Assembly (NCBI GenBank): GCA_964464475.1
Contig: CAYXGG010000004.1
Coordinates: forward strand, 4,940 to 68,939
From: an uncultured Planctomycetales bacterium
GTDB lineage: Bacteria > Omnitrophota > Gorgyraeia > Zapsychrales > JAHFFX01
Length of the DNA stretch: 64,000 nucleotides
Reading direction: 5' to 3'
Both the position numbers and the translations under genes were made by a program. Positions 30,597-48,774 of the stretch are shown in pieces. How positions within the stretch are numbered: the first letter of the stretch is position 1; each line of letters opens with the position of its first letter. Below the pieces are notes generated by a model. It was not told the origin of the DNA. It was given only the letters and a program-made list of their open reading frames with translations, and searched no databases.

Positions 30597-30605
30597 AGTT
30601 CCTCC

Positions 30606-32799: not shown

Positions 32800-33789
32800 T
32801 TAGTAAAATGTTTTCAGCGCCTTCATGTAATTGGCTCGTTCAAAAGCTTCGGGATTAGGGCAACGCTGCTGACTTAAACTGCCTTTCATCTGGGTCACGG
32901 AATCATAGTTGTGTTCTTCCATCCACCTTTTCATTTCCTCCAAAACCGTCTCCACATGATCAATACCGTTTTTTAATAGGGCCGAACACATCATCGTCAC
33001 GTCAGCCCCCGCCATCAGCATTTTTAAAACATCGCTGGCTTCATGGATGCCGCTCGTCGCGGCTAAACTTAATTTCAAATGACCATAAAGGATCGCAACC
33101 CAACGTAACGGTAGCCGCATCGCCTGCGGCGTGCTCAGCAACACGTTCGGGACGACGACTAAGTTCTCGATGTCCAAATCCGGTTGATAAAATCGGTTAA
33201 AAAGCACCAAACCGTCCGCTCCGACGGCTTCCAAACGCTTGGCCATGTTCGCCAGGGCGCTAAAAAAGGGACTGATTTTCACGGCCACCGGAATGCTCAC
33301 CGTGGACTTGACTGCTTTTAAAATATTGATGTATCTTTGTTCAATCTCCGTACTGCTCGCGTTAAAATCCGTGGCCATAAAATAAATATTAAGTTCAATC
33401 GCGTCGGCGCCCGCCTCTTGCATCAGTTTGGCGTAACGAATCCAGCCGCCTTCCGAATGACCGTTTAAGCTGCCAATGACCGGGATCTTCACAGCCGCTT
33501 TGGCCTGTCGCAAATGGTTCAGGTATTCATCCGGGCCTAAAATCAACTCATCCGGTTCCGGAAAAAAGGTCAATGATTCAGCATAACTTTCGGTCCCGTA
33601 AGAGAGATAATGATTCAATTCTTTGATTTCTTTTTGAATCTGTTCTTCAAAGAGAGAATACATGACCACGGCCGAGGCCCCGGCATCTTCCAATTGTCTA
33701 AAATTATTAATGCTTCCCGACAAAGGAGACGCGGAAGCAACCAAGGGATTTTTTAATTTCAGACCTAAATAATGCGTCGTGAGATCCAT
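32800..33789 (-). CDS. Dihydroorotate dehydrogenase family (class 1 / dihydropyrimidine-DH-like) FMN TIM-barrel protein
   Basis: N-terminus LGLKLKNPLVASASPLSG typical of DHOD 1A/1B / PreA. Start probably at internal Met (MDLTTHY) just downstream of the nifJ stop. Confidence 0.65.
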   Translation of the reverse strand: MDLTTHYLGLKLKNPLVASASPLSGSINNFRQLEDAGASAVVMYSLFEEQIQKEIKELNHYLSYGTESYAESLTFFPEPDELILGPDEYLNHLRQAKAAVKIPVIGSLNGHSEGGWIRYAKLMQEAGADAIELNIYFMATDFNASSTEIEQRYINILKAVKSTVSIPVAVKISPFFSALANMAKRLEAVGADGLVLFNRFYQPDLDIENLVVVPNVLLSTPQAMRLPLRWVAILYGHLKLSLAATSGIHEASDVLKMLMAGADVTMMCSALLKNGIDHVETVLEEMKRWMEEHNYDSVTQMKGSLSQQRCPNPEAFERANYMKALKTFY

Positions 33790-33802
33790 AGTATTTCTCT
33801 GG

Positions 33803-36800
33803 TTATTGTTTTTGTTGATTCCCATTGGAAGTAGCGGCCATCGCGCTTAATATTTTCCAACGCTCCTGAACGTCTTTTTTGGCTAAATCCATTAACCGGC
33901 GCGCTTCATCCGGATGGCTTTTCGTCAACATTTTGTAACGGTTCTGACGATATGCGTATTCCTGCAGAGGCACCGTCGGTCCTCCGGAATCCAATACCAA
34001 CGGCGGCTTACCTTCATACGCGAGTAGCGGATTGTAACGAAAAAGTGGCCAATAACCGGTCTGCACCGCTGCCTTGTGCTCTTGTAAAGCGGTGGTCATA
34101 TTGATCCCATGCGCGATGCAATGGCTATAGGCAATAATCAGCGACGGGCCGTCATAGGCTTCCGCCTCCAGAAAAGCGCGTACCGTGTGCTCGTCTTTCG
34201 CGCCGAAAGCAACGCTAGCGATATAAATATTCCCGTACGTCATCATCATCCGCGCCAAATCTTTCTTCCCTTGGGTCTTACCACCGGCTGAAAATTTGGC
34301 CACTGCGCCTCGCGGCGTGGACTTCGACATTTGACCACCCGTATTGGAATACACTTCCGTATCAAGAACCAACACATTCAGGTTTTGCCCGGAGGACAGC
34401 ACGTGATCCAACCCCCCAAAACCGATGTCGTAGGCCCACCCATCTCCGCCGATTATCCAGATACTTTTTTTAACCAGCATATCGGCCAGTTCCAGCAAGC
34501 GTTTAGCTTCCCAGCGAGCCAGCTTTGACAATTTCTGTTTTAAAATGTCAACCCGTTCCCGTTGTTCCTGAATTTCTGATTCATCATGTTGAGGAGAATG
34601 CAGCAACCCGTCAACCAGCGATGAACCTAAATCATTCGCCAATACTTTGACGAACTCTTCCGCCATCTGTCGTTGTTTGTTAACCGACAATCGAAATCCC
34701 AAACCGAATTCTGCATTGTCCTCAAACAGCGAATTGCTCCAGGCGGGACCCCGACCGGCATTATTTCTGGCCCACGGGGTCGTCGGTAAATTCCCGCCGT
34801 AAATGGAAGAGCAACCGGTCGCGTTGGCGATCAGCGCTCGATCTCCGAATAATTGTGACATCAATTTCAAATATGGCGTTTCTCCACACCCCGCGCAGGC
34901 GCCGGAAAACTCAAACAAGGGTTTAGCCGCTTGCAAGCCGCGTACAGTATTCAACTTAAGCAACGAACGGTCCACCTCAGGGAGACGCGTGAAATGATCC
35001 CAATCGGTCCGACCTTGCGCGACGATTTCTCCCGCCGGTCGAATATTGAGGGCCTTAATGCGCGTTTCGGTTTTGCTGCGCGCCGGACAAACATCGGCAC
35101 ATAATCCGCATCCTGTGCAATCATCAACAGAGACCTGGATCGTAAATTGTTGATCTTTAAATTCTGGGTCTTTGGCAGGCATATATTTGAAACCGGAAGG
35201 CATCTGTGGAATTAAGTCGGCCGTGAACACTTTGGTACGAATGACGGAATGGGGACATACAAATACGCATTTACCGCACTGAATGCACAGATCCGGTTTC
35301 CACTCAGGTAACTCCGTGGCGATCCCTCGCTTTTCCCACTGGGCTGTTCCCGTCGGATAAGTCCCATCAACCGGCAACCGGCTGACGGGCAGCTTATCCC
35401 CGCACATAGCCATCATGGGCGCCGTCACCTGTTTGATGAAATCTGGCGCCGACGGATGGACGCCGGTATTGCGCTGGCGAGTAGCAGTGACTTTTGTAGG
35501 TACGGTCACTTCCTGCAGCCGTTGCAAGGCAATGTCAACCGCCTGATAATTCATCTGGACAATCTCATCACCTTTTTTACTATAAGTCTTTTTTATAAAA
35601 TCTTTAATCAACTGGATCGCCGCGGCCTTTGGCAAAACGTTGGAAATAGCAAAGAAACACGCCTGCATGATGGTATTGATGCGTCCCCCCATCCCCGTCT
35701 CAATGGCGACCTTGCTGGCATCAATAACAAAGAACTTTAATTTCTTATCAATGATCGTCTGCTGCACTTCCCGCGGCAAATGGTCCCAGACCTGACTGGC
35801 GGCGTAAGGGCTATCTAAAAGAAAAATACCCTTCTCTTCTATTTTTTCCAAAACATCAAACTTTTCCAAGAATCCGAATTGATGACAACCCACAAAATTA
35901 GCCCGACTGATCAAATAGGACGACCGAATCGGGTTCGGGCCAAAACGCAAATGCGATATCGTCATCGATCCGGATTTCTTGGAATCATAAACAAAATATC
36001 CTTGGGCGTAATTGTCCGTGTTCTCGCCGATGATTTTAATCGTATTTTTGTTAGCGCTCACCGTTCCATCAGACCCTAATCCATAAAAAATGGCTCGGAC
36101 CGTCCCGGCACCTTCCGTGCTAAACGTCCCATCAACCTCTAAACTGCTGTGCGCAACATCATCATGAATCCCAACGGTAAAATGCCGCTTCGGATCTTTC
36201 TTGAGCAATTCATCAAAAACCGCCTTGGCCATGGCCGGGGTGAATTCTTTCGATGCTAATCCGTATCGTCCTCCAATAATATTAGGTAGCGCCTTTAAAA
36301 TACGCTGGCCGGCTTCTTGGACGGCGTTGACCACGTCCAAGTAAAGTGGTTCGCCCGCGCTGCCCGGTTCTTTCGTCCGATCGAGGACCGCGATGCTTTT
36401 CACAGTCGAAGGTAACGCCGCGACGAATCTCTCAACATCAAACGGACGAAACAAGCGAACCCGCAAAACACCGACCGATTGCCCTTTCGCATTAAGGTGC
36501 TCGACAGTTTCCATAATCGCCTCGGCGCTGGATCCCATCGTGACAATCACCCGTTCAGCATTGGATGGTCCGATATACTCATAGAGTTGGTAGCCACGTC
36601 CCGTCAACTGTTTCAGTTTGTCCATTTCTTGTTGAACAATACCCGGGCACGCCAGATAAAAAGCGTTGGCTGCCTCTCGGGCCTGAAAATAAACATCCGG
36701 ATTCTGCGCCGTCCCGCGCATGACCGGCCGGTCAGGAGTTAACGCTCTCAAGCGATGCGCTGAAATCAAATCCTCAGGGATCATTTGCTTCAACACGTCC

Positions 36801-37363
36801 AGATCAAGAACATCTATTTTGGAAATTTCATGAGAAGTCCTAAAACCATCAAAAAAATGAACAAATGGGACCCGAGATTTCAACGTTGCCGCGTGGGCAA
36901 TTAAAGCAAAATCCATGACCTCCTGCACATTGCCGGAAGAAAGTAACGCAAATCCGGTTGAGCGCGCGGCCATCACGTCTTGATGATCCCCAAAAATCGA
37001 CAAGCCTTGCGCGGCGATCGCGCGAGACGCGACATGAAATACCGTCGAGGTCAACTCGCCGGCAATCTTATACATATTAGGCAACATCAACAGCAGCCCT
37101 TGAGATGCGGTAAACGTCGTGGCCAAGGAGCCTGACTGCAGCGCCCCGTGCAACACCCCCACCGCGCCCACCTCGCTTTGCATTTCCTGCACCAAGGGAA
37201 CGGTGTCCCATAAATTCTTGATTCCGGCGCAGGCCCATTCGTCCGCCAACTCTCCCATCGTTGACGACGGGGTGATCGGATAGATGGCGATCACTTCATT
37301 TAATCGATAAGCGATGTAAGCGGCCGCTTCATTGCCTTCTAACGTCTTTTTTAATTTGACCAT
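33803..37363 (-). CDS. nifJ: Pyruvate:ferredoxin (flavodoxin) oxidoreductase, single-polypeptide PFOR/NifJ
   Basis: 1186 aa; domain I N-terminus (YPITPSS), ferredoxin CxxCxxCxxxCP pairs, TPP-binding GDG motif. Confidence 0.95.
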   Translation of the reverse strand: MVKLKKTLEGNEAAAYIAYRLNEVIAIYPITPSSTMGELADEWACAGIKNLWDTVPLVQEMQSEVGAVGVLHGALQSGSLATTFTASQGLLLMLPNMYKIAGELTSTVFHVASRAIAAQGLSIFGDHQDVMAARSTGFALLSSGNVQEVMDFALIAHAATLKSRVPFVHFFDGFRTSHEISKIDVLDLDVLKQMIPEDLISAHRLRALTPDRPVMRGTAQNPDVYFQAREAANAFYLACPGIVQQEMDKLKQLTGRGYQLYEYIGPSNAERVIVTMGSSAEAIMETVEHLNAKGQSVGVLRVRLFRPFDVERFVAALPSTVKSIAVLDRTKEPGSAGEPLYLDVVNAVQEAGQRILKALPNIIGGRYGLASKEFTPAMAKAVFDELLKKDPKRHFTVGIHDDVAHSSLEVDGTFSTEGAGTVRAIFYGLGSDGTVSANKNTIKIIGENTDNYAQGYFVYDSKKSGSMTISHLRFGPNPIRSSYLISRANFVGCHQFGFLEKFDVLEKIEEKGIFLLDSPYAASQVWDHLPREVQQTIIDKKLKFFVIDASKVAIETGMGGRINTIMQACFFAISNVLPKAAAIQLIKDFIKKTYSKKGDEIVQMNYQAVDIALQRLQEVTVPTKVTATRQRNTGVHPSAPDFIKQVTAPMMAMCGDKLPVSRLPVDGTYPTGTAQWEKRGIATELPEWKPDLCIQCGKCVFVCPHSVIRTKVFTADLIPQMPSGFKYMPAKDPEFKDQQFTIQVSVDDCTGCGLCADVCPARSKTETRIKALNIRPAGEIVAQGRTDWDHFTRLPEVDRSLLKLNTVRGLQAAKPLFEFSGACAGCGETPYLKLMSQLFGDRALIANATGCSSIYGGNLPTTPWARNNAGRGPAWSNSLFEDNAEFGLGFRLSVNKQRQMAEEFVKVLANDLGSSLVDGLLHSPQHDESEIQEQRERVDILKQKLSKLARWEAKRLLELADMLVKKSIWIIGGDGWAYDIGFGGLDHVLSSGQNLNVLVLDTEVYSNTGGQMSKSTPRGAVAKFSAGGKTQGKKDLARMMMTYGNIYIASVAFGAKDEHTVRAFLEAEAYDGPSLIIAYSHCIAHGINMTTALQEHKAAVQTGYWPLFRYNPLLAYEGKPPLVLDSGGPTVPLQEYAYRQNRYKMLTKSHPDEARRLMDLAKKDVQERWKILSAMAATSNGNQQKQ

Positions 37364-37407: not shown

Positions 37408-38049
37408 TTACCAACCCAAATATTTCATTCCCATTCCAAGAATAATAAACGTCATTGCTGCCAACGCCTGCGGCCAACGCGTCGCCTGAAACTTAGGCAT
37501 CCGCAAATAATTCATCCCCCATAACCCCGTGGCGACCAACCCGATCATGGTTACCATGGTGCTCAGCCCAAAAGCACCCACCACCATCCATTTCATACTC
37601 GGGAAATGTGTCCAATCCGGTAAAGAAAGGATGGGAATAAGCGGTTCACAAGGACCAACGACGAAGAAAACAATCAGCGCCACCTTGAGCGCCTGACCTT
37701 TAACTTGAAGATCCTCAGCTTGAGTGGCGACAATTTCTTTTCGCAACGCCCAGATTAAATAAACAACGCCCGTCACTATGAGCACCCAGGCCGCGACATC
37801 CCCCCGCAAAGATTCAAATACTTCCCATCTGAAGAAAGAAAATTTCATGGCGAGAAGGGCTTGCCCGATCACCATCGCGAACATGACATGCGATAACGCG
37901 CATAACATCGTTAGTCCCATCACCTTCCTTAGATTCAAACGCTGGGCTTTGGCCAACGCGATAATCGGCACATAATGATCCGGCCCCAGGATGGCATGAG
38001 TGACTCCTGTCAAAAACGCAAAACACAACCAACCCATCAATTCGTTCAT
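37408..38049 (-). CDS. hupE: HupE/UreJ-family nickel (Ni/Co) permease
   Basis: About 6-TM 213-aa protein with the N-terminal HAILGPDH motif (family signature HPxxGxDH); sits next to the hydrogenase genes. Confidence 0.5.
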   Translation of the reverse strand: MNELMGWLCFAFLTGVTHAILGPDHYVPIIALAKAQRLNLRKVMGLTMLCALSHVMFAMVIGQALLAMKFSFFRWEVFESLRGDVAAWVLIVTGVVYLIWALRKEIVATQAEDLQVKGQALKVALIVFFVVGPCEPLIPILSLPDWTHFPSMKWMVVGAFGLSTMVTMIGLVATGLWGMNYLRMPKFQATRWPQALAAMTFIILGMGMKYLGW

Positions 38050-38067: not shown

Positions 38068-39666
38068 TCACATAGCCCCGCCCGTATGACAATCAAAACA
38101 TTTCATATCACGCCACAAACCATCATCTTCAAACGGATGTTCAAACTCCAAACCTTCAACACTTCTCTTAGGCTGGCTAGCCGGACCCTGTTCGATGATC
38201 GTATGACACACGTCGCATTGCTGCGTGATGACTTTACCTTCAACCGATTTATGTTCTTCGTCATGACAACGAAAGCAACCGGGAGAATTCATATGGCCAA
38301 TATTATCTGGATACGCGTCCCACCGCGCTTTCATCTCTGGGAAGAAATTATGCTGAAATAAATCCACTAACGTCGTCGCCGCTTGATCAACCTGCGCGCC
38401 TTGCTGCGCTAAAACCTCGGGATAGTTCTCCTGATAATACGCCAGCAGGTTAGTTCTAATTTCCTGAATCGCCTGCTGTTCCGTTTCATACGTTTGGCTA
38501 AGTAGCTTTAAAGCAACTTCCTTCAATCCAGGCAAAGTTTCGGGCATTTTTCCTTGAACCATAGCTTGGTTAATGAGTCGATCGGGAGCGCGATAATGAT
38601 GAGAAGGCCGATTATGGCAATCCATGCAGTCCATTTTGCGAATCTGACTGGGAAGCGGCGCCTTATCTTTAAAAACTGAATTGTCCGTGACATACACCGT
38701 CTCCTGGCCATCTTTGGCAACACTCTTCACCCAAGTAATGTCTTGCCGCTTCTCATCTTCGGCGGCGTAATAAATGTCGTGATCAATGTACATATGCGCG
38801 TGGATGCCAGCATCACTGTTCTCGCTTCGCCCAATCGGCAACAGCATCCGCAATGACCATTTTTCTTTGTCCGCGGAAGAAGGATAATAGGTTCTTTTCA
38901 TTTCTACGGAACTGTAGAATTGCCCCGGCCAGTGACAATGCTCACAGGTTTCTTTGGCGGGACGAAGATTCTTAACGGGAGTGGGGATCGGTTTGGGATA
39001 AGATTTTTGAATCGTTTTGAAAACCTGGCGAAGGCCGGACATTTTTGAGCGAACGTACCAATCCGCGCCCGGACCAATATGGCATTCCACACATTTAACA
39101 TTGGCATGCGGGGAATGCTGATAAGCGGTATATTGTGGTTTCATCACATCATGGCAGGTGGTGCCACAAAACTTAACGGATTCGGAGTATTGAAAGGCTT
39201 TATACGAACCAATGGCCGTCATGACCAAAACAATCGTTGTCCCCACCGAGAAAACAAAAATGGCATTACGGTGCTCTGGATTGGTGGGATCAATAAGGAT
39301 CGATTTGGGTTCAATTTGAGAATGACCTAAAGCAACACGCCTTCTTTTCCAGAGCGCCCCCACGGGAATCAGAAATAAACCTCCAATTAAAAATGGCGGC
39401 AGAATCAGATAGGTAAAAATAGCGAGGTAGATGTTGGATCCACCGGAAAAGAAATCAATACCGAACAATAAGAGTTCGGCCACAATGGTTAAACCGGCCA
39501 AAAATAAACCAAAATATGTAGTGCTGTTGTAGAAATACGCCGAAAATCGGTGGGGAGGTTGACCACCGTGAACATTTTCTGAATTAGATTTTTCCGATTG
39601 TTCAGTCATATTGGTTTTGGTTAGCGACACAGGTTCCGGCCGAAGGGCCGGAACCTCTATCCCCAC
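38068..39666 (-). CDS. Inner-membrane heptahaem c-type cytochrome, ImcH-like (NapC/NirT-related quinol dehydrogenase)
   Basis: Three N-terminal TM helices, then seven CxxCH motifs (CGTTCH, CVECH, CEHCH, CMDCH, CFRCH, CDVCH, CFDCH); about 530 aa, as in Geobacter ImcH. Confidence 0.65.
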   Translation of the reverse strand: MGIEVPALRPEPVSLTKTNMTEQSEKSNSENVHGGQPPHRFSAYFYNSTTYFGLFLAGLTIVAELLLFGIDFFSGGSNIYLAIFTYLILPPFLIGGLFLIPVGALWKRRRVALGHSQIEPKSILIDPTNPEHRNAIFVFSVGTTIVLVMTAIGSYKAFQYSESVKFCGTTCHDVMKPQYTAYQHSPHANVKCVECHIGPGADWYVRSKMSGLRQVFKTIQKSYPKPIPTPVKNLRPAKETCEHCHWPGQFYSSVEMKRTYYPSSADKEKWSLRMLLPIGRSENSDAGIHAHMYIDHDIYYAAEDEKRQDITWVKSVAKDGQETVYVTDNSVFKDKAPLPSQIRKMDCMDCHNRPSHHYRAPDRLINQAMVQGKMPETLPGLKEVALKLLSQTYETEQQAIQEIRTNLLAYYQENYPEVLAQQGAQVDQAATTLVDLFQHNFFPEMKARWDAYPDNIGHMNSPGCFRCHDEEHKSVEGKVITQQCDVCHTIIEQGPASQPKRSVEGLEFEHPFEDDGLWRDMKCFDCHTGGAM

Positions 39667-39677
39667 AATTCAAATTG

Positions 39678-41795
39678 TTAGTACCACGCTAACGTCACAT
39701 CCAACCAAACCGCGTGGGCGTTATAATCCCCCGCTTCCGCTGAGGCATAACTGGTGTCATAGCTGGAATAAACGTAGTGCGGTTCCAACGTTACGCTTTT
39801 ATTAGGTTTAAGCGTGACCCCCATCTCAGCGTCATAACGGGTAAAGTCCGACCCCATGGGCAAACCAATCGTCGAAAAATCATCGAAATTGTTCGCCTGA
39901 GAATAAGTAAACGTCGAAAAGAAACTCATCTGTTCTCGAGGCGAATAGCTAACCGAAGCCATCCAGCTATCCACGTTAGAAGTAAACCCCGGCGTTTTCC
40001 CCGTACTGGCTTTTGCCGCGGGAGTGGTTGTTTTATCCAATTCTCGCGTATAAGCCACCGTCAACAACAACGGATCAAACGGCTGCATCGTAAAATCATA
40101 CGTCATAACATGTGCCAAGACTCGACTCAGCGTTTCCAACTCATTCTCCACTCGGGGATAGTACCGATTGTTCAAAAATTGATATCGCGCTGAAGTCTGC
40201 AGCCAAGAGAAAGGCTTCCAGCCGACTTTAGAACTGACTTCATCCGACTGCAAACGCAAAGCGTCAAAGAATGCCGATCTGGCGGTTGAACCACCAGGAT
40301 TAGTTTCTTTCCGATCATCGTAATCATTGTTCTCATCTTTGTGTTTATAGTGAGCATTAATATTTAGCCAGCCGACGGGAACATATCGTCCCCCGACAAC
40401 GCCAACATTTCTATAAACATGCGTCAGCGTATCGCGCCCAAAGATCTCTCCATCCTCAGGACTCGACTGACCCGCCAAACTGTTACGCGATTCATACAGC
40501 GTATTGCGCGCCTGTGATAAATCCACTTCTGAGTACAGACTTACCTTCGGAATGCCCGAATAACGCAACCCGAAATTCTCACCGAATTGATACACCCGGC
40601 TTTTCGTATCGCTGACCTCTACCGTATTATTGATCCCGTCCGGAGGATTAGTCGTCTCCGATGGATAAATGGAATTACCCCGCTTACTGATTAATTCAGC
40701 TTTCACTTTAGTAATGACATTCAAATCCGGCAAGGGCATCAACGTGTAATGCCCGTTCCAGGCGTGCTGATCCATTTCATTCTCTGCGGTCGCGTTAAAT
40801 TTATTCTTGGGATTAGAGTAGGAAACAGGGATCCCGGCCGCCGTAAATTCCTTTAAGAATTCCAATTCATCATTTCGCAACAAACTATACCGATACCCCA
40901 ACCCCAAAAAGGACTTATCTTCATTAAACCATCGCTCCCCGCGCAAGCTAGACGACATCAAGTCCGTTTTGGGTTCCTGATCTTGACGACGTATTTTGGT
41001 ATCCGCGGCCACCCCCGTCGTAGCAAGACTCCTCTCTTCCCGAAGCGACGTGGCTCTAAAAAATTCCCATTTCTGTTCACCGCTTAATTTAAAATTGGCC
41101 AACATCGTTCGTCCCTTCAAGGCTAAAGAATCCGACGTTTCATCAACGTCTTGCCAGGAGGGTCCAATGCTGCGGGTCGTGGCACCCTCTTTGACGGCGG
41201 TCCAAGCCAATCGCGATTTCTTGCCGTCTTTGACGTGCCGTTCGTATTGAAAACTTAATCCGGATTCTTGTTCGGGATCCGTACCGACTTCCACGTCGAG
41301 GAAACCCACATTCATTTCCAAGTCTGGGTCTAACTCATTAACTCTTAATGTCGTAAAAGAACGATAGACCCCGCCCGTCCCATCAAAGTACTTAGTAAAC
41401 GACTGATACTTGCCTTTTAAATAACCAAATTCTTCTCGAGCAATACCAAACTCGGCCTGCGCGTCATTTTCCTGGGGGAACACAGAACCAGAAAAATTAA
41501 AATGAGTTTCTTTATTAATGTCTTTGGTGTAATTAATATTCTTGAAGCCGTACACATACCCGTCTTTTCTCCAACTCAACGAACGGTATTTCTCGATATC
41601 ACCTTTAACGGCGGTAAAACGAGATTCCGGCGTCACGGTAAAAACCGCTGGCTCTTCAGCGACAGCTTCTTCGGCCTGCTTTTCATCCTGGCCTTGATTT
41701 ATTGTTTCGGTCATCGCTGAATCTGGGGCCGCCACGGCTCCCGGACTCCCCGAAAGCCCGACTAATAGCGCCAATAGAAAAATATACGGACTCAT
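39678..41795 (-). CDS. Outer-membrane beta-barrel protein of a porin-cytochrome complex (MtrB/PioB/MtoB-like)
   Basis: Signal peptide, 705 aa of amphipathic beta-strand pattern rich in Y/W/F/N/D, C-terminal aromatic ...LAWY. Lies between two multihaem cytochrome genes. Confidence 0.6.
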   Translation of the reverse strand: MSPYIFLLALLVGLSGSPGAVAAPDSAMTETINQGQDEKQAEEAVAEEPAVFTVTPESRFTAVKGDIEKYRSLSWRKDGYVYGFKNINYTKDINKETHFNFSGSVFPQENDAQAEFGIAREEFGYLKGKYQSFTKYFDGTGGVYRSFTTLRVNELDPDLEMNVGFLDVEVGTDPEQESGLSFQYERHVKDGKKSRLAWTAVKEGATTRSIGPSWQDVDETSDSLALKGRTMLANFKLSGEQKWEFFRATSLREERSLATTGVAADTKIRRQDQEPKTDLMSSSLRGERWFNEDKSFLGLGYRYSLLRNDELEFLKEFTAAGIPVSYSNPKNKFNATAENEMDQHAWNGHYTLMPLPDLNVITKVKAELISKRGNSIYPSETTNPPDGINNTVEVSDTKSRVYQFGENFGLRYSGIPKVSLYSEVDLSQARNTLYESRNSLAGQSSPEDGEIFGRDTLTHVYRNVGVVGGRYVPVGWLNINAHYKHKDENNDYDDRKETNPGGSTARSAFFDALRLQSDEVSSKVGWKPFSWLQTSARYQFLNNRYYPRVENELETLSRVLAHVMTYDFTMQPFDPLLLTVAYTRELDKTTTPAAKASTGKTPGFTSNVDSWMASVSYSPREQMSFFSTFTYSQANNFDDFSTIGLPMGSDFTRYDAEMGVTLKPNKSVTLEPHYVYSSYDTSYASAEAGDYNAHAVWLDVTLAWY

Positions 41796-41809
41796 AGTTC
41801 ACCTCCTCC

Positions 41810-42667
41810 TTAGTAACGCAAATGATCATCGAAATTAGAACCATGCACCGCCGTATGGCATCCGGCGCTAAAGCAGCTTCCCTGCGGCATGCGCGTCCCG
41901 TGATTGGAGCGGCCTATCGTCGGAAAAGCAACCTGGGTATGACACCGCAAACACAGATTATTATCCCGGGCGATCAGCATCTTTTGATTGACCGATCCAT
42001 GGACTTTATGGCAAGTCAAACAGCCTTCTCTCACGGCTTCATGCTCCCAGACAAAAGGCCCGCGCTGTTCCCCATGACATTTAAAACAAGTTTCATTAAC
42101 ATCATCCAAGTAAGCGGTCGTGCCGGGAATCGCATCCGGACCATGCGAATTGTGGCAATCCGCGCAAGCCATTTTGCCTTCCGTAACCGGATGATGAAAA
42201 GGCAGACGAAATTCCGCCCGTTTGTCCGTATGGCAGGAAAAGCAAAGCTCCGGATTCTTGCGCGGGCTCATAATGTTGTCCTTGCCCCCGCCATTCTCCA
42301 CATGAACGCTGCCCGGGCCATGGCACATTTCGCAACCTTGAGCCATTCCCTCAGGAATATCTCTCATGTCGATCCGTGAATGCGTTGATAAATTAAATTC
42401 GCGCTGAGCGTCCTCGTGGCACGTCGCGCAAGTTTCCGTCCCAACATAGGTTGCGCCTGGAGGGAATTTAATCGCGGAAAGCACTTCTTGTTTGGCCATG
42501 GCGGGAGTAACTAAAATGAAGCCAGCCAGAACCAAAAGGAATAAACCCCAATTTAGCTTCCTATTGACTAAAAAGACCCCCGAGAATCCATGCTTCTTCC
42601 CGTGGAATGCCGGAAGCCAAGAGCGCCTGCCCCCATCAATTAATTTATCTTGGATGTTCATAGGCAT
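41810..42667 (-). CDS. Periplasmic octahaem c-type cytochrome (MtoA/OmaB-like)
   Basis: Seven CxxCH plus one CxxxxCH (CFSAGCH) in about 230 mature residues; signal peptide/anchor. The true start may lie downstream of the track's Met. Confidence 0.75.
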   Translation of the reverse strand: MPMNIQDKLIDGGRRSWLPAFHGKKHGFSGVFLVNRKLNWGLFLLVLAGFILVTPAMAKQEVLSAIKFPPGATYVGTETCATCHEDAQREFNLSTHSRIDMRDIPEGMAQGCEMCHGPGSVHVENGGGKDNIMSPRKNPELCFSCHTDKRAEFRLPFHHPVTEGKMACADCHNSHGPDAIPGTTAYLDDVNETCFKCHGEQRGPFVWEHEAVREGCLTCHKVHGSVNQKMLIARDNNLCLRCHTQVAFPTIGRSNHGTRMPQGSCFSAGCHTAVHGSNFDDHLRY

Positions 42668-42682
42668 CTCCTTAATTTTTCT

Positions 42683-42955
42683 CTACTTACTTTTAGAATT
42701 CTCGACTGGACCAATCGTTTTATACGTTTCTTCCGTTGGTTCAGTCGCCGCCTCGACCGCCTTTTTGCCATAATCGTTCAAGTCATGCTGCCCTTGCTCT
42801 TTTTTAGGTTTGTCACTAACATGACAATCAATGCATTTGGGTTTCGCGGAAGGGAAAACTTTTTTGTAAATCTTGATTTGATCAACGTCCGCGGAAGCCA
42901 CCCCTCCTAACAAAAATACCGACGTTAGCATCATTAAGAATAATTTCATGATCAC
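42683..42955 (-). CDS. Small periplasmic monohaem cytochrome c (MtoD-like)
   Basis: Signal peptide and a single CIDCH; 90 aa. Confidence 0.6.
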   Translation of the reverse strand: MIMKLFLMMLTSVFLLGGVASADVDQIKIYKKVFPSAKPKCIDCHVSDKPKKEQGQHDLNDYGKKAVEAATEPTEETYKTIGPVENSKSK

Positions 42956-42966: not shown

Positions 42967-44550
42967 TTATGTTAGCTTAAGCATTGATTTCTTAAATCCC
43001 CACCACAACAAAAAGACGGCTTCGACCGCCACAAATATTCCAACCCACGCCGTTCCACCCGCCCCGGCCCCATAACTATGTAACCCTCTCCCCAATAAAA
43101 AATTAACGCCATACCACGTCATCAAAACTAACTGAAATCCAATAATGGTTCCGATGGCCAACCCTTGATCCGTCAATTTTCCCGCGTAACGTAGATGCAA
43201 AAGAGCCATATAACCTAAGAAAGTAATGAGCGCCCACGTTTCCTTAGGGTCCCACCCCCAAAATCGCCCCCAAGACTCATTAGCCCACACGCCTCCCAAC
43301 ACGGTCCCAATGCCTAGCGTCAAACTTCCCAATTGTAAGAGGCGCAGCATGGCCTGCCCGGAGGCTTGTTCATCGGGCGAAGATAATCTTCCCAGCGAAT
43401 TTAAAATTATGTGGCGATGCCCCAGGGCCATGGCCAAACCAAAGACCCCATAGCTCGCCACGATCGTCAAAACATGCAACGTCAACCAATAATTACTGCG
43501 CAACACCGGCACCAGCACCCCTAAAGATTTCTCCACTGGTAATAAATCGCCATACAACAAAACCAAAGCCGCCGCCAAAGAGCCTGACGTCAAAACAAAA
43601 TAATTCTTTCCCTTCCCCCAGAATCCGGCAATACAAAGCACCAGAATCCAACTCATAAAAATAATGGATTCATACATGTTGGACACCGGTGGCCGCTCCA
43701 AAATCAAACTACGCAAAACCATGCCAACACTGTGATAAATAAATCCGGCTATCAGTAACCCACCCCCCAGCTTCTTTAACCCATCCTTACCGGCGTTCAT
43801 CATTAACAAAATAAAACTACACAAATAAATCATCCAACCCATTTGAAAAGGACGTAATAAATAATACTGTCCCTCCAGCCCAATCATCTGGCGCCACTTT
43901 TGTTGAGTGGTGACGTGCGTTGCCGTGTTCCAGGCCTGCAATGATTTCTCGTTAACGGATAAGCCTTGCGCCACTAAAGCCTTAAAAGTCATTCCGGATT
44001 CGTTCTGTATCACCCAAGGAGAGAGCCATTCCTCCGATGGTGCTGGCACCACCTTAAATAAATCACCGCCGCTTAACTGATCCACCAACAACAAGCGTCC
44101 ATAAACGGCTTCTGCTTTTTGCTCCAAAGCAGAAGGACGTTCGTCTTGATCCCTTTTCTTCTGGGATGAACCGACCAGATTAACTAACTCACCGACTTTA
44201 GGACGTAATTCTCGATAAGAAAAATATTTTTGTTCCCTATCCAGCAACAACGATTCCTTCAAAGGGCGATAGTCCAAAGCAATCATCTTCTCATCAAGAA
44301 AACTCTCCGGTTTAGACATACGCGCCCAAATAAAGCTCACCGCGCTTTGTCCTACAAAACGTTCCTTACCCGTGATTTCTCTAAGTGTTTCGCGAGCAAA
44401 CGATTCAAAAGATTTGACCCGACCGCCGTGAAGAATTGGAATCGCCCCGGCCGCCTTCTCAAAAGAGTCGCCGCGCAGCCAGGCAACGGATGCCAGCGCC
44501 AAGAAAAATCCGATGCCGACCATCAGCACGTTAAATCTTTGATTGTTCAT
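42967..44550 (-). CDS. ccsA: Cytochrome c biogenesis protein CcsA/ResC (System II haem lyase subunit)
   Basis: WGWDPKETWALITF (the WWD domain) and conserved His residues; polytopic. Confidence 0.85.
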   Translation of the reverse strand: MNNQRFNVLMVGIGFFLALASVAWLRGDSFEKAAGAIPILHGGRVKSFESFARETLREITGKERFVGQSAVSFIWARMSKPESFLDEKMIALDYRPLKESLLLDREQKYFSYRELRPKVGELVNLVGSSQKKRDQDERPSALEQKAEAVYGRLLLVDQLSGGDLFKVVPAPSEEWLSPWVIQNESGMTFKALVAQGLSVNEKSLQAWNTATHVTTQQKWRQMIGLEGQYYLLRPFQMGWMIYLCSFILLMMNAGKDGLKKLGGGLLIAGFIYHSVGMVLRSLILERPPVSNMYESIIFMSWILVLCIAGFWGKGKNYFVLTSGSLAAALVLLYGDLLPVEKSLGVLVPVLRSNYWLTLHVLTIVASYGVFGLAMALGHRHIILNSLGRLSSPDEQASGQAMLRLLQLGSLTLGIGTVLGGVWANESWGRFWGWDPKETWALITFLGYMALLHLRYAGKLTDQGLAIGTIIGFQLVLMTWYGVNFLLGRGLHSYGAGAGGTAWVGIFVAVEAVFLLWWGFKKSMLKLT

Positions 44551-46367
44551 AGCGACTCCTCGTCTTTACCGCTAGGCGTCTTTTTGGCGGACGCACTTAG
44601 TTTCTTACCGTAAAACTGAAAGAACGCTCCCAAGAAAATGAGCGTGGAACTGTTATAAATCAAACCAATCCCTGGATTCTTAGCCACCGTAAAAATGGAA
44701 CCTTCTCCTTCGTGAGGATCCTGAAAGAAAGAAGATTGAAAAATTTTGTAACCGCGGTAGGAGAGTGGCTGATTCATGCTTATAGTTTTTTCCATGACTA
44801 ATTTCTCGGCAGGATCTTCGAGCACAACCTTACTTTCATAAGAAGCCGCCTGCTGCGTTCCCGGATAATCAACTTTTTGAAAATCTTTTAGCGTTAACGT
44901 AAAGGGTAATTTAGACATGATCGGTACCAGGGCGAGTCTCCAATCACCGGTCCCGATGGCTAAATCCGTGTCTTTACCTTCTATAATCCAAGCTCGTTTT
45001 AGAGTTCCCTGGTCCAGCGCTGCAATTTCAACCGCCGTAGCCCCTTTTCCCGGATCCGGAGAAGGAATTATTTTTGTTTCCACTACCGCCCGATCATAGA
45101 TGGCTTCAATCTTAAATACGGCATCCATCCAGCCAGCGCTGATGGATTCATTAATGTTTACTTTCCCGCGCTTGCTATCTGCGCCTTTAATTCTCGACTG
45201 ATAATGGAGCGCTCCCGTTTCATCTCGCCAAAAGGCCAAATAACTGTTAAGACTAACGTCATCAACATTCGCGTTTTGGGCCGTAAATTCAATTTGCACG
45301 GCTAACTGCTCCACCTGACTGTCTTGATGCAACATTTCAAAATGGGGAAATAAAGCAAATTTCAGAACTGGCTGGGATTTTCCTTCAGGAGAAACCAAAT
45401 CAAATTTGACCGCTGGATTAGGCTCTCCGCTATCAACGAGATTAACCACACCTTCTTTGGCCACGCGCGCATGCGAGAGGTAAACAAGATTGCGGATCAC
45501 CCATCCCGAATTCCCTAGGGGAGCGGCAACAATATTTTCTTCGGTAAGCGGAAATTCGAACCAATCTGATTTCTCATCAAATTTAAACCGTAATTGAGTT
45601 TCCTCTGCGACTTCCTCGGGAGGAGCCTGGGGTAAAAGCATCAAATCCAAAGGACCCAAGGATTTATAAAAACCTTCCGGATTAAACGGATCATGTTCTA
45701 CCAACCAAATTGATTCCTGCATCTTGGCCTGAGCACTGGATACGGCAACCTTGACGGCTAAATTCACGTCGGCTTGCGAATCTCCCGGCTTCACTTCATA
45801 ATCTCTGGCGGCGTGATCCAAAATATTTGTCACTTTAAAATCTACCGTTGGATTCTTCTGAGCGTTCTTCGATTTTTTATTCTCTAAAGGACAAAAATTG
45901 GGATCAATCCGATGCCGCGGGGCCAACACGGCATGGGTTCCTTCCCTCACAGGAACCCATTGGTCTTCCATGCCGGGTGACGAGACTCGAATCTGCGCGC
46001 CTCCTAACATCAACACATTAGCTGATTGTTGTTCTCTTAACGTCAACTGGCCCTCCTGGCCATAGGTACGCGTGATTAACGATCCCAGCAGCAAACCTAA
46101 AATGCCAATATGAGTGACCACAAAAGCAGCGTGTTTTTTCTGAAAAGGTAAACGTAATACCGTCGCGCAAAATATATTGATCCAAAGCAACGCTAACAGA
46201 AAATCGAACCAACGCGTTTGGTAGACCGATTTCTGGACTAAGGCCGTTCCATAGCGCGACTCCAAAGTAGTCGACGTGATCAAAAGACCCATCAGGGCTA
46301 AACAAATGATCACGGCAAAATGGACCGAACCTAATTGACGAATAAGCTTCATGGACCAACGCACCAT
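44547..46367 (-). CDS. ccsB: Cytochrome c biogenesis protein CcsB/ResB
   Basis: ResB-type topology (N-terminal TM, large periplasmic domain, C-terminal TMs), overlapping and translationally coupled with ccsA. Confidence 0.8.
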   Translation of the reverse strand: MVRWSMKLIRQLGSVHFAVIICLALMGLLITSTTLESRYGTALVQKSVYQTRWFDFLLALLWINIFCATVLRLPFQKKHAAFVVTHIGILGLLLGSLITRTYGQEGQLTLREQQSANVLMLGGAQIRVSSPGMEDQWVPVREGTHAVLAPRHRIDPNFCPLENKKSKNAQKNPTVDFKVTNILDHAARDYEVKPGDSQADVNLAVKVAVSSAQAKMQESIWLVEHDPFNPEGFYKSLGPLDLMLLPQAPPEEVAEETQLRFKFDEKSDWFEFPLTEENIVAAPLGNSGWVIRNLVYLSHARVAKEGVVNLVDSGEPNPAVKFDLVSPEGKSQPVLKFALFPHFEMLHQDSQVEQLAVQIEFTAQNANVDDVSLNSYLAFWRDETGALHYQSRIKGADSKRGKVNINESISAGWMDAVFKIEAIYDRAVVETKIIPSPDPGKGATAVEIAALDQGTLKRAWIIEGKDTDLAIGTGDWRLALVPIMSKLPFTLTLKDFQKVDYPGTQQAASYESKVVLEDPAEKLVMEKTISMNQPLSYRGYKIFQSSFFQDPHEGEGSIFTVAKNPGIGLIYNSSTLIFLGAFFQFYGKKLSASAKKTPSGKDEESL

Positions 46368-46378: not shown

Positions 46379-47425
46379 CTAAGTTGTTACCGTCATCTTT
46401 TCCAAAACGGATGACACTGAAGTCATTTTTTGACGAAATTGGATCATCTTTTGCTGAATGATCTCTTCTACCTGGCTTTTGGCCGCGAGTCGTAACGCCG
46501 CGTTATCTTCCAAGACTCTATCCAAATCATCGAGACTCAGGAGCTCAACCCCCTCAATATCGGCCACTTTGGGATGAATGTTGCGAGGCATCGAAATGTC
46601 AACCATGATTAACGGTCGGGATCTCCCTCTCATCACTTTGCGAACCAACTCGGTTTCAATTAAATAATGCGGGGCCCCCGCAGAACAAATACAAGCATCC
46701 ACGTCCCTCAACACTTCTAATATCTCCCAATAAGAAACCGCCTGACCCTGAATTTGCTGTGCTAATTCCTGAGCCTTTTCTTCATTTCGATTCATCACGT
46801 ACACCTTCGCCACTGATTTCAAATTCAACTGTTGAATAGCCAACGACGCCATTTTCCCCGCCCCTAAAATCAAAATTTTCTTGTCCTTTAGCGATTGCAA
46901 ACGTTGTTGAGCCGCCGTGACCGCAGCCCAACTCACCGAAGCGCCCCCCACGCTTATGTTTGTTTCCGCTTGAGCCTTCTTGCCCGCGCGAATCGCTAGG
47001 TTAGTTAAAATATTTAATTGGCGGCTCATCATCCCTTTTGAACGCGCCAACTCGACCGCGTCCTTAAATTGACCCAGGATCTGCTTTTCTCCCATGATCA
47101 AAGAATCTAACGAACACGCCACGCGAAATAAATGATCGACCGCCTCCTCATCCGTATAAAAATAAAAAGCCTCCTTCACCCATGGCTCAAAAAGTACTTT
47201 TTTTAAGGACAGCAAGTTCCCAAAAACACGCTCTTGGGCATTATCAACCGCATCGACATAAATCTCGGTTCGATTACATGTCGAAATCACAAAACATCCC
47301 GCAATCGCAGGGTCACACTTAAGCTCATTAATAAACAATTCTCGTTCTAAAGGACGCAAGAAAAACTTCTCCCTAAAATCAACACTCGATGTCTTATGGT
47401 TAATACCAAGCACCCTTAATCCCAT
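46379..47425 (-). CDS. hemA: Glutamyl-tRNA reductase HemA
   Basis: ISTCNRTEIY active-site Cys motif and an NADPH-binding GAG.MA Rossmann segment. Confidence 0.85.
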   Translation of the reverse strand: MGLRVLGINHKTSSVDFREKFFLRPLERELFINELKCDPAIAGCFVISTCNRTEIYVDAVDNAQERVFGNLLSLKKVLFEPWVKEAFYFYTDEEAVDHLFRVACSLDSLIMGEKQILGQFKDAVELARSKGMMSRQLNILTNLAIRAGKKAQAETNISVGGASVSWAAVTAAQQRLQSLKDKKILILGAGKMASLAIQQLNLKSVAKVYVMNRNEEKAQELAQQIQGQAVSYWEILEVLRDVDACICSAGAPHYLIETELVRKVMRGRSRPLIMVDISMPRNIHPKVADIEGVELLSLDDLDRVLEDNAALRLAAKSQVEEIIQQKMIQFRQKMTSVSSVLEKMTVTT

Positions 47426-47436: not shown

Positions 47437-47976
47437 CTAATTGTTGACGGCTGGCGATTCCTTAACTTTTTGCCAAAGTTCCTGACGTTCAGCACTTTTT
47501 AATTGTTCACGGATAGTTCCCAGCACACTGTCTTTCTCAATCTGCAGATGATGACGCAATAAACAAAATACATAGGTTCCTTCGTCATGAATTTTCCGAA
47601 CGATTTTTTTGCGAGAATGACGCTTCGGCAATTCTTCAACCGACACGCACAAATCATTCAAATGTTTAATTTTATTTTCCAATTCGAAATGCTCGGCTTT
47701 CAAAAACTGCAGGAGCGGCACTAAGCTAGGAACGCGTTGACTGAGGTAGGGAAAAACAATTTTATCCTGAATGGCTATCAACTCGATCAACTCTTCAGCC
47801 AAACAGCGAGCAATGCTACCCGCGGATCGAATGTTCCTCTTCTCCAGAAACTTGCCCTCATAGTGCAAATTAGATAACGCGGAATACAACTCATCGGTCT
47901 TATGCAAAATATTAATTTGCCGTGAGTTTAATAAAGAAATTAAATTTTGATCATGAATAGGCATAATGTCCGCCAA
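47437..47976 (-). CDS. Hemerythrin-like (HHE cation-binding) domain protein
   Basis: Spaced H...E / H..xxE pairs (EHFELENKI, LRHHLQIEKD) in a helical 179-aa protein. Confidence 0.45.
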   Translation of the reverse strand: MADIMPIHDQNLISLLNSRQINILHKTDELYSALSNLHYEGKFLEKRNIRSAGSIARCLAEELIELIAIQDKIVFPYLSQRVPSLVPLLQFLKAEHFELENKIKHLNDLCVSVEELPKRHSRKKIVRKIHDEGTYVFCLLRHHLQIEKDSVLGTIREQLKSAERQELWQKVKESPAVNN

Positions 47977-48084: not shown

Positions 48085-48774
48085 TTAAGAGGATAGTAAC
48101 CGCTCAGCAGCGAGGATTTGAATACGGCGAGATTTTGTTCGAATGATTTTCTTCTGGGCCAGGCGGCTTAAATGACGGCTCACGGTTTCCCTGGCCAGCC
48201 CTAGCCTTTGAGCTATTTCTTCGTGAGTCAAAATGACGTTAACCTCTCGAACGCCTTGCTCATCAAGGTGACCATCGGAAGCATCTAACAAAAACTTGGC
48301 GATGCGTTGGGCGGGATCATCCAAACTCACCGATTCAATGAGTGAACAAAATCGGCACAATCTCTTGGCCAGAATTTGATTTAACTTCTTGGCCAACAAA
48401 TGGTTGGATTCCAGCAATTGGGTATAAACAGAGCGTGGAACCGCCCACACTTTTAAGGGGGACATCGCTTGTCCTGAGGCTGAACAGCTCCATTTGGTGG
48501 CGCCGGGGTTGCAAGCACACGATTCCCCAGGTTCCAAAACTTCTAAAATCTGCTCTTTGCCTTGGGCCGAATGTCTGAATATTTTCATGCGACCAGTTTG
48601 AACAATAAAAATTTTCTCGCAGGGGTCGGTCTCTGTAAAAATAAGTTCTCCTTTAGCATAAACTTCTAATTTAACCTGCTTTTTAATTTTTGACAGTTCT
48701 TTGGCGGGAATCCCTTGAAACAAGGATAAATTCTCAAAACTCATCGCGAGCGTGTCCTTCGCTTGGAATTTCAT
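48085..48774 (-). CDS. Crp/Fnr-family transcriptional regulator
   Basis: cNMP-binding beta-roll followed by a C-terminal HTH (THEEIAQRLGLARETVSRHLSRL). Confidence 0.8.
   Translation of the reverse strand: MKFQAKDTLAMSFENLSLFQGIPAKELSKIKKQVKLEVYAKGELIFTETDPCEKIFIVQTGRMKIFRHSAQGKEQILEVLEPGESCACNPGATKWSCSASGQAMSPLKVWAVPRSVYTQLLESNHLLAKKLNQILAKRLCRFCSLIESVSLDDPAQRIAKFLLDASDGHLDEQGVREVNVILTHEEIAQRLGLARETVSRHLSRLAQKKIIRTKSRRIQILAAERLLSS

Follow-up and report, generated by a model that had tools for sequence, protein, structure and literature searches.

The Mto gene cluster of Sideroxydans lithotrophicus ES-1 (slit_2494-2498, encoding PmcA, ImoA, MtoB, MtoA and MtoD) combines a small periplasmic monohaem cytochrome, an MtrA-family cytochrome, an MtrB-type barrel and a NapC/NirT-related multihaem cytochrome, and has no MtrC (PMC13390432). 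A cluster with the same parts list was found in a 64,000-nucleotide (nt) stretch of DNA, referred to here as the window, from an uncultured Planctomycetales bacterium assigned by its GTDB lineage to the Omnitrophota (GenBank assembly GCA_964464475.1, contig CAYXGG010000004.1, positions 4,940 to 68,939 of the forward strand). Four genes at positions 38068-42955 of the window encode a monohaem cytochrome c, an octahaem cytochrome, a large outer-membrane beta-barrel and an ImcH-like inner-membrane cytochrome. Among the described systems, this cluster is closest to that of Sideroxydans in composition and to MtrAB in fold and homology. We consider it very likely that the cluster is a trans-outer-membrane conduit wired to the quinone pool. 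A more specific reading, which we regard as probable, is that of a divergent and reduced MtrAB/MtoAB-type conduit, linked to the quinone pool by the ImcH-like protein and served by the monohaem cytochrome, in which outward electron flow is favoured.

The original prediction, made from the letters of the window alone, had described four consecutive co-directional genes, and open reading frames (ORFs) were found on the minus strand exactly where it had placed them: the monohaem cytochrome c gene at 42683..42955 (a precursor of 90 amino acids (aa), about 67 aa when mature), the octahaem cytochrome gene of the MtrA/MtoA/DmsE family at 41810..42667 (285 aa), the MtrB-like barrel gene at 39678..41795 (705 aa) and the gene for the ImcH-type heptahaem inner-membrane cytochrome at 38068..39666 (532 aa). 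The gaps between them are, in this order, 15, 14 and 11 nt. The predicted haem motifs were all present as well, with one in the monohaem protein, seven CxxCH plus CFSAGCH in the octahaem protein, none in the barrel and six CxxCH plus CGTTCH in the ImcH-like protein. A simple Kyte-Doolittle hydropathy scan, employed for the transmembrane and signal calls on these four proteins, detected a signal-like N-terminal segment in the monohaem, octahaem and barrel proteins, in agreement with the signal peptide proposed earlier for the monohaem cytochrome.

When all six frames of the window were searched for ORFs of at least 60 aa that carry CxxCH, only four were obtained, namely three of the conduit genes and the small subunit of a hydrogenase. 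Since three of the four are immediate neighbours, the clustering of the conduit cytochrome genes is not due to chance. Similarly, no CxxCK motif was found in the seven gene products checked. The gene unit reaches beyond the range first outlined, as genes of the resB-like and ccsA-type and hemA lie immediately upstream on the same strand. We infer the operon boundaries from gene spacing. A scan of the region from 32.5 to 49 kb gave 17 promoter-like sites, which is no excess over the 21.6 found in shuffled sequence, and 31 terminator-like sites compared to 22.2, none of them intergenic inside the cluster. The GC content of the cluster (0.46-0.48) is the same as that of its flanks, and base composition thus shows no sign of an island acquired recently by horizontal transfer.

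The octahaem cytochrome is a genuine member of the MtrA family. Its comparison with MtrA of Shewanella baltica (6r2q_A) by phmmer gave E=3.1e-40 and 141.7 bits, in two stretches over residues 67-279. In this alignment, the two N-terminal and the six C-terminal haem sites of the octahaem protein were matched, while two middle sites of MtrA were left without a counterpart. Judged from this pattern, the best description of the protein is that of an MtrA which has lost two internal haems and in which the last site has turned into CX4CH. Eight haems, rather than 10 or 12, were also what the original prediction had counted for the periplasmic cytochrome. The family definition of MtrA, MtoA, PioA and DmsE includes ten CXXCH sites, and here the octahaem protein, with eight, falls short. 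On the DmsE/MtrA-family model TIGR03508 it scored 182.5 bits, below the curated cut-off of 192.2, and its best NCBIfam match was the GSU2203 (OmcK) decahaem family (185.2 bits vs. a cut-off of 325). Within the MtrA family, a count of eight haems is unusual. Among porin-cytochrome systems at large it is not, since porin-cytochrome complexes (Pcc) contain 5-14.

Further, the eight-haem pattern is a family trait rather than a local accident. Seven CxxCH followed by a CX4CH of the C[FW]S[AG]GCH type were present in 42 of the 53 octahaem orthologues listed; seven more carried one extra CxxCH, located in over-extended ORFs of high GC content. In an alignment of 36 octahaem sequences, all eight haem motifs and nine further His residues were invariant, and these nine would therefore be enough for bis-His ligation of every haem. 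Publicly, the proteins are named 'cytochrome c3 family protein', 'predicted CXXCH cytochrome family protein' or 'hypothetical protein'. The public gene call for the octahaem protein of the window (P0316) starts at Met3 and yields 283 aa; the real start may lie further downstream, since the orthologues reach only about 250-260 aa.

The 705-aa protein, which is devoid of Cys and combines a signal-like N-terminus with the C-terminal sequence TLAWY, had been predicted to be an outer-membrane beta-barrel. This was borne out by a confident AlphaFold2 model (mean pLDDT 85.2, pTM 0.77) that is all-beta over residues 51-704 and consists of approximately 26 long strands without a plug, the fold that defines the MtrB/PioB family. 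In a Foldseek search, the best structural match was MtrB (6r2q_B), with E=2e-12 and TM-scores of 0.63 and 0.68, compared to at most 0.47 (TMq) and 0.51 (TMt) for the other chains listed; MtrB aligned over 554 residues and receptors over about 430. The model also contains a short helix (residues 67-74) between strands 1 and 2, and its strands 2-5 are short. Both peculiarities, a helix of this kind in the first loop and early strands of reduced length, have been described for the crystal structure of MtrB (PMC7198977). By its model, the barrel is a structural homologue of MtrB. We propose that it would act as an insulating sheath for the octahaem cytochrome, a role for which the strict adjacency of the two genes speaks. 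A TonB-dependent receptor was considered and rejected, since a plug domain is missing, hidden Markov models (HMMs) of TonB receptors gave no match, and the TM-score to MtrB is much better.

At the level of sequence models, the check once suggested for the barrel, a search with the MtrB/PioB HMM TIGR03509, did not succeed: neither this model nor PF11854 (MtrB_PioB) recognised the protein, and for the latter no match was found at E<=10. Nor was the protein assigned to any other family of Pfam or NCBIfam. A weak bridge was provided by NF041027, the model of the GSU2204 family, which matched one member of the barrel family and one more distant relative (E=1e-7 and 1.6e-6), with scores far under the family cut-off of 350 bits. 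The GSU2204 family has been named an MtrB/PioB-type barrel in a recent review (PMC13188914). As a separate observation, the barrel of the window (P0301) is filed in a 90%-identity cluster whose representative is a 54-aa TatA from Geobacteraceae, which is a clustering artefact.

In the ImcH architecture, about 500 residues hold three helices at the N-terminus, an atypical CX3CH adjacent to the membrane and six CXXCH (PMC6295460). The 532-aa protein of the window follows it closely. Hydropathy placed transmembrane segments at residues 49-75, 79-106 and 134-155, directly followed by CX3CH (CGTTCH) at 167, and CXXCH motifs were located at 192, 241, 347, 464, 484 and 523. The protein is heptahaem only if the CxxxCH is counted, as is done in the ImcH literature. 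The NapC/NirT-like region was recognised by PF03264 (E=1.7e-12, residues 134-222), and a match to NrfH (2j7a_C, E=4e-4) aligned the CX3CH with haem 1 of NrfH. The spacing of the motifs (25/49/106/117/20/39) is nearly identical to the 24/49/109/117/20/40 of the homologues of Zhong and Shi (2018), whose Table S3 includes three from Omnitrophica (PMC6295460). In a 505-aa orthologue from a related locus (L016), 44% identical to the protein of the window, the first haem motif lies exactly where it was published (position 135). Its remaining six motifs are each shifted by one residue towards the C-terminus relative to the Omnitrophica entries of that table, and the spacing thus differs at the first step only (25 vs. 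24). These results agree with the three-helix heptahaem inner-membrane cytochrome of the original prediction and with its choice of an ImcH-like rather than a CymA partner. The public gene call (P0033) starts at Met20 and gives 513 aa. We propose that this protein links the conduit to the quinone pool.

The monohaem protein carries a single CIDCH motif within a family signature, K.Y...P.C..CH....PKK....H..N.YG, in which the second His is invariant, suggesting bis-His ligation. No Pfam or NCBIfam family matched it, and similarity to MtoD or to any solved cytochrome was not detectable (best E=0.27). A weak match over 28 residues (E=0.004, from a single comparison) was obtained with the PSCyt1 domain that is fused to distant barrels, and is taken as a lead only. 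We propose that this protein carries electrons through the periplasm, linking the inner-membrane cytochrome with the conduit. In several related loci, the gene right after the barrel encodes another type of monohaem cytochrome, of 110-125 aa (L012:3486-3860, L013:12003-12347, L018:11998-12336, L028:11957-12334 and L059:11972-12304). It takes the place of the 90-aa type that is found upstream in the window, and shows weak similarity to SoxA/TsdA cytochrome domains (E=1.7e-4).

The arrangement in the window is one variant of a module that is conserved across the Omnitrophota, not a one-off. A scan with one genome per species identified 72 loci that encode the barrel, corresponding to at least 72 species-level genomes. 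They are labelled mostly as Candidatus Omnitrophota/Omnitrophica, and many bear the automatic labels 'uncultured Planctomycetales/Planctomycetia' or 'uncultured bacterium'; a few belong to Verrucomicrobiota, Syntrophales or 'Deltaproteobacteria'. An HMM scan of 1.84 billion representative proteins (clusters at 50% identity) returned 951 members of the barrel family at E<=0.001. The closest named relatives of the window are metagenome-assembled genomes of Omnitrophota, with 58% identity in the barrel, 67% in the octahaem cytochrome, 59% in the ImcH-like protein, 71% in a putative pyruvate:ferredoxin oxidoreductase (PFOR) and 72% in a dihydroorotate dehydrogenase (DHOD)-like protein. Judged by these relatives, too, the window very probably comes from the Omnitrophota.

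The octahaem gene adjoins the barrel gene in all of the related loci with enough flanking sequence (62/62). The other components are less constant: the ImcH-like gene directly follows the barrel gene in 13 of 50 loci, lies within 5 kb in another 13 and elsewhere in the locus in five, while homologues of the 90-aa type of monohaem cytochrome were found in 24 of 60. A hemA homologue is located no more than 2.5 kb upstream of the barrel gene in 22/52 related loci, and resB/ccsA homologues occur within the fetched flanks of 18 of the 32 long loci. A gene for a large multihaem cytochrome of the surface type was not found beside the barrel in any fetched related locus. The 'complete' conduit lacking an outer-surface cytochrome that had been predicted is therefore a description that applies to the window and the related loci only.

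In about a dozen loci, the barrel gene and the ImcH-like gene are separated by genes for a nonahaem cytochrome, a Rieske protein, a cytochrome b and, in most cases, a tetrahaem cytochrome. This insert, which constitutes a second quinol-linked module beside the ImcH-like one and is missing from the window, was confirmed by Pfam in L001:11266-14785 and is also present in L015, L045, L046, L064 and L067; the set occurs in a different gene order in L014, L016, L024, L026, L029 and L031. Other partners follow the barrel elsewhere. At L020:3845-9123, there is a set comprising a pentahaem cytochrome, a molybdopterin-oxidoreductase-like protein, an iron-sulfur (FeS) protein and NrfD, which by our own reading resembles alternative complex III. 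A molybdopterin oxidoreductase with a Tat signal and a tetrahaem cytochrome come directly after the barrel at L023:12016-14876, and at L049:11965-14853 there are, by our own reading, a tetrahaem cytochrome, a putative protein of the FeS type and a membrane protein of 402 aa that is probably NrfD-like. It thus seems that the conduit itself stays the same while its partners in the inner membrane can be exchanged.

A sister branch of the barrel family, of about 800-915 aa, bears one or two monohaem domains of the PSCyt1 type fused to its N-terminus (P0032, P0236, P0252, P0254 and P0261). Likewise, verrucomicrobial loci L058:9251-12007 and L062:1680-4088 contain a barrel ORF with one CxxCH and an octahaem gene next door. 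Because of these fusions, the barrel family is independently tied to haem-based electron transfer. They also suggest that a monohaem partner docks at the periplasmic end of the barrel. The fused proteins are cytochrome-porin fusions on an MtrB-like, not a Cyc2-like, barrel.

Beyond the shared parts list, several differences separate the cluster from that of Sideroxydans. Its MtrA homologue has eight haems and MtoA ten; its barrel is not recognised by MtrB/PioB HMMs; the partner in the inner membrane is a three-helix heptahaem protein of the ImcH type instead of the tetrahaem, CymA-like ImoA; and the monohaem cytochrome has no detectable similarity to MtoD. The hosts also differ, an anaerobe-like member of the Omnitrophota compared to an Fe(II) oxidiser that is microaerophilic and betaproteobacterial. 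To MtrCAB of Shewanella (6R2Q) the cluster is related through the octahaem cytochrome, a homologue of MtrA, and through a barrel of about 26 strands with a short helix after strand 1 and short early strands. In contrast, MtrC has no counterpart in the window, the octahaem protein lacks two of the internal haem sites and ends in CX4CH instead of CXXCH, and the identity between the barrel and MtrB is only 13%. Canonical mtrCAB has been reported in three phyla, none of which belongs to the Planctomycetota-Verrucomicrobiota-Chlamydiota (PVC) group or Omnitrophota (PMC8805035). ImcH of Geobacter sulfurreducens and its homologues are similar to the 532-aa protein in length, in their three transmembrane helices, CX3CH and six CXXCH, and in their near-identical spacing. 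However, no mtrAB or mtoAB was next to any imcH in the 2018 survey (PMC6295460), whereas here the ImcH-like gene follows an MtrAB-like pair both in the window and in those 13 of 50 related loci.

The original prediction had also seen kinship with Mto/Pio systems and with the Pcc of Geobacter. The first of these was supported, through the MtrA homology and the MtrB-like barrel, and the second was not. The Pcc exemplified by OmaB/OmbB/OmcB follows the same logic of a porin with a periplasmic multihaem cytochrome, and OmaB also has eight haems. ImcH acts upstream of the Pcc complexes in Geobacter. The cytochrome of the window, however, is an MtrA homologue, and Pcc porins are much smaller, with 18-22 predicted strands, in complexes that usually include an outer-membrane cytochrome (PMC4245776). 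Membership in this group was rejected on the basis of the ~26 strands of the barrel, of the window, which has no further cytochrome, and of the related barrels, which have no large multihaem gene beside them.

Another pair from Geobacter, OmcK (GSU2203) and the product of the adjoining gene, GSU2204, belongs to the families that the octahaem cytochrome matches best and that distant members of the barrel family match weakly. Both genes are up-regulated with iron-oxide minerals (PMC4070692). GSU2203, however, is a decahaem protein and the cytochrome of the window has eight haems; GSU2204 carries a CXXCH, in some species with selenocysteine, and the barrel of the window has no Cys; and no score came close to the cut-offs of the two families (325 and 350 bits). 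Finally, the EET1-4 clusters of peat Acidobacteriota and Verrucomicrobiota (bioRxiv 10.64898/2026.05.27.727921) are, like this one, Mtr-like by structure and not by sequence, and contain MtrA-like cytochromes of 8-13 haems. Some of them come from Verrucomicrobiota (Limisphaerales), and distant relatives of the barrel described here are verrucomicrobial too (L057, L058, L061 and L062). In contrast to the window, they include extracellular multihaem cytochromes, and the preprint mentions neither Omnitrophota nor ImcH.

A possible mechanism can be drawn from these components. The CX3CH haem of the ImcH-like protein, which lies close to the membrane within the NapC/NirT-like module, would be the site where electrons are exchanged with (mena)quinol at the periplasmic face, and the seven-haem chain of this protein would pass them on to the ~7-kDa monohaem carrier or directly to the octahaem cytochrome. 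The latter, inserted in the ~26-strand barrel, may form an insulated haem wire of about 60 Å across the outer membrane. The ten haems of MtrA span 80 Å, compared with an outer membrane of about 40 Å (PMC7198977), and eight haems would by proportion therefore cover about 60 Å. The invariant terminal CX4CH haem is expected to be exposed at the cell surface and, because no MtrC-like surface cytochrome is provided, to react directly with the external partner; candidates are Fe(III) in soluble or chelated form, Mn, shuttles of the humic or flavin type, or a contacted surface. The link to quinone is supported by the related loci, since the three alternative neighbour modules are all of kinds that connect quinol to periplasmic cytochromes.

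With regard to direction, flow outward from quinol to an external acceptor, which would serve as an anaerobic electron sink, is somewhat favoured for three reasons. Firstly, the oxidation of quinol is the one role in which ImcH has been implicated to date, and its homologues were found only in Fe(III) reducers (PMC6295460). Secondly, soluble Fe(III) chelates can still be reduced by MtrAB when MtrC is missing (PMC7198977). Thirdly, the neighbourhood is anaerobic or fermentative: the genes for a probable PFOR, for an NAD-linked [NiFe] hydrogenase and for an acetyl-CoA hydrolase/transferase in the window suggest an anaerobe in need of electron sinks. Given that the cluster is a conduit, we hold outward flow to be moderately likelier than inward flow.

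Several points weigh against the reading proposed here. The conduit is known from genes alone, and the organism is uncultured. None of the 32 members of the barrel family examined matched PF11854 or TIGR03509 (Pfam, NCBIfam) at E<=1 and, conversely, the profile of the barrel family failed to find MtrB among the sequences of the PDB at E<=10, so that the homology with MtrB is based on predicted structure, at 13% identity, together with the weak bridging matches. The AlphaFold2 model of the octahaem cytochrome, calculated from the 36-sequence alignment, was unusable (pLDDT 53.8, pTM 0.37, disordered from residue 178). The likeness to ImcH is indirect, drawn from architecture and tabulated spacing and not from the sequence of GSU3259 itself, and in 19 of the 50 loci the ImcH-like gene was absent from the DNA fetched. 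As for outward flow, it is the Fe(II)-oxidising systems of the Mto/Pio type that typically have no surface cytochrome. Moreover, MtoA and PioA are not phylogenetically separate from MtrA (PMC8805035), and since they nest among MtrA proteins, the direction of flow cannot be read from sequence.

The alternative that survives best has electrons moving inward through the same hardware, as has been proposed for MtoAB and PioAB, from soluble Fe(II), reduced humics or a mineral or cathode-like surface, via the monohaem cytochrome to the ImcH-like protein (which would then reduce quinone) or to another periplasmic acceptor. This is possible, though we judge it a good deal less probable. The match in composition with the Mto cluster, i.e., a monohaem cytochrome, an MtrA homologue, an MtrB-like barrel and a NapC/NirT-related cytochrome with no MtrC (PMC13390432), would be well explained, as would the lack of a surface cytochrome gene near the barrel in every fetched locus, and Mtr-type conduits, among which Mto and Pio proteins nest, are bidirectional (PMC8805035). 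The record of ImcH, however, speaks for quinol oxidation and Fe(III) reduction only (PMC6295460); neither a terminal oxidase nor a nitrate reductase was found in the window by Pfam scans of most but not all ORFs of at least 150 aa; and the neighbouring genes point to a need of sinks, not donors.

A further reading, which we consider doubtful, sees in the cluster a third MtrAB-type lineage, centred on the PVC group and the Omnitrophota and with the shortest known chain of the MtrA family (eight haems), that would exchange electrons with the surface of a partner or host cell, or with its shuttles, rather than with minerals. Omnitrophota are ultra-small, reportedly host-dependent bacteria. If this reading were true, electrical coupling would be part of their symbiotic or predatory lifestyle, and the genes for cytochrome c maturation and HemA that accompany the conduit would make it a self-contained, transferable respiratory module.

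It is quite unlikely that the cytochrome-barrel pair feeds, in the manner of DmsEF, a dedicated terminal reductase at or beyond the outer membrane that is encoded elsewhere in the genome. The octahaem cytochrome scored nearly as high on the DmsE-family model TIGR03508 (182.5 bits) as on any other, and molybdopterin-type proteins do follow the barrel in two loci, in L023 with a Tat signal and a tetrahaem cytochrome and in L020 with FeS and NrfD subunits. Nevertheless, such an enzyme is encoded neither in the window nor in most related loci, and the L020 set, by its NrfD subunit, looks like an inner-membrane quinol-linked module and not like a surface reductase. The weakest alternative, an ordinary large porin or transporter that is adjacent by chance to a periplasmic chain (Nrf-like or serving another soluble acceptor), would account for a barrel without sequence-family assignment and for the weak NrfB and NrfH matches, but is highly improbable in view of the plug-less barrel without TonB-receptor HMM match and with its far better TM-score and longer alignment (554 vs. 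~430 residues) to MtrB, the 62/62 adjacency, the cytochrome domains fused to the barrel in the sister branch, Nrf scores far under the cut-offs, and the lack of a catalytic protein of the NrfA/HAO type, the only other CxxCH ORF being the hydrogenase subunit and CxxCK missing from the seven products. An Nrf/HAO-type pathway as such was rejected on the same grounds (NrfB, 29.7 vs. 166.6 bits; NrfH, 52.8 vs. 134.2 bits; no CxxCK). The two findings that the original prediction had named as fatal to it were thus replaced by their opposites, a barrel model for the 705-aa protein and, in place of clear orthology to a nitrite or hydroxylamine reductase pathway, Nrf scores far below the cut-offs.

Omnitrophota are widespread in groundwater and sediments; to our knowledge, they have never been cultured and their energy metabolism is largely guesswork. 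The cluster is a concrete candidate for a respiratory device in this group. Full-text searches of the literature for Omnitrophota or Omnitrophica together with ImcH, MtrA, MtoA or porin-cytochrome returned no description of an octahaem-barrel conduit, which is in line with the undescribed variant that had been suggested. One study reported FeGenie matches to cytochromes of Desulfovibrio ferrophilus in 10 of 23 Omnitrophia species (PMC10066038), and a subsurface study listed Omnitrophica among taxa with iron-cycling genes (PMC8478452); the searchable literature ties Omnitrophota to iron cycling through generic FeGenie matches only. FeGenie uses TIGR03509 for MtrB, a model that is blind to the barrel of the window. 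Tools based on MtrB HMMs miss the conduit, because its key parts are labelled 'hypothetical protein' or 'cytochrome c3 family protein'.

What is new here is a probable eight-haem, MtrC-less conduit of the MtrAB type, linked to ImcH, with a barrel unseen by sequence models and conserved across the Omnitrophota; no new principle is involved. The genetic linkage between ImcH and an MtrAB-type pair is the first in the literature searched, the 2018 survey having reported none (PMC6295460). Further, a natural eight-haem variant of MtrA bounds how short an outer-membrane wire can be, and the related loci offer natural swaps of the modules (ImcH, Rieske/cytochrome b and NrfD-type) that accompany an otherwise unchanged conduit.

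Upstream of the monohaem gene, the same strand carries genes related to the provision of haem proteins. The stop of a gene for a CcsA/ResC-type subunit of System II cytochrome c synthase (42967..44550, minus strand; PF01578, E=7.8e-31; TIGR03144, 164 bits) lies 11 nt away, and this gene overlaps by 4 nt with that of a ResB-like System II cytochrome c maturation protein (44547..46367, minus strand; PF05140, E=1.6e-21). After another gap of 11 nt comes hemA (46379..47425, minus strand), encoding a glutamyl-tRNA reductase that scored above the cut-off of TIGR01035 (351 bits). HemA catalyses the first committed step of haem synthesis. The co-located maturation genes and hemA fit a cluster that supplies its own cofactor machinery; elsewhere in the 64 kb there are no c-type cytochrome genes. 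Just upstream of hemA is a 179-aa ORF without family match (47437-47976, minus strand). Eight or more of the related loci have a homologue of it (27-39% identity), which in L001, L052 and L064 is an immediate neighbour of hemA. Beside it lies a gene for a regulator of the Crp/Fnr family (48085-48774).

On the other side, 18 nt downstream of the ImcH-like gene and before that of PFOR, a protein with about six transmembrane segments is encoded (37408..38049, minus strand). It bears an N-terminal H-x5-DH motif and has no family match below E=1, and is thus unassigned; among the related loci, L029 alone has a homologue, located far from the conduit, and the membership of this protein in the conduit unit is doubtful. 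It is followed by an ORF of the size of PFOR (1186 aa) and a gene of the DHOD family, which overlap by 23 nt (32800-37363, minus strand). We read the former as a probable PFOR from its size, its FeS Cys motifs and its 71% identity to the counterpart in L001. The pair also follows the ImcH-like gene in this closest relative (L001:16419-20961), with 71-72% identity. An NAD-linked [NiFe] hydrogenase with NuoE-like, NuoF-like, HoxU-like, small and large subunits is encoded further on, together with HypF, HypD and a HypE-like protein (27918-32773 and 22391-27128, minus strand), the last being a protein of the AIR-synthase fold. This hydrogenase, co-directional with the conduit and PFOR, could feed or draw electrons on the same metabolism.

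Two other regions of the window were of separate interest. A gene for a HerA-like helicase (9790-11952, minus strand; PF05872, E=2e-225) has a 180-aa neighbour of unassigned family, and a PADLOC scan at this gene gave only generic HerA/mad8 matches and no defence system. Also on the minus strand, the stretches 57606-60968 and 61666-63939 contain genes for two separate histidine kinases, a large one of the CHASE-PAS type and one of the Cache/HAMP type, and for a response regulator of the AraC type.

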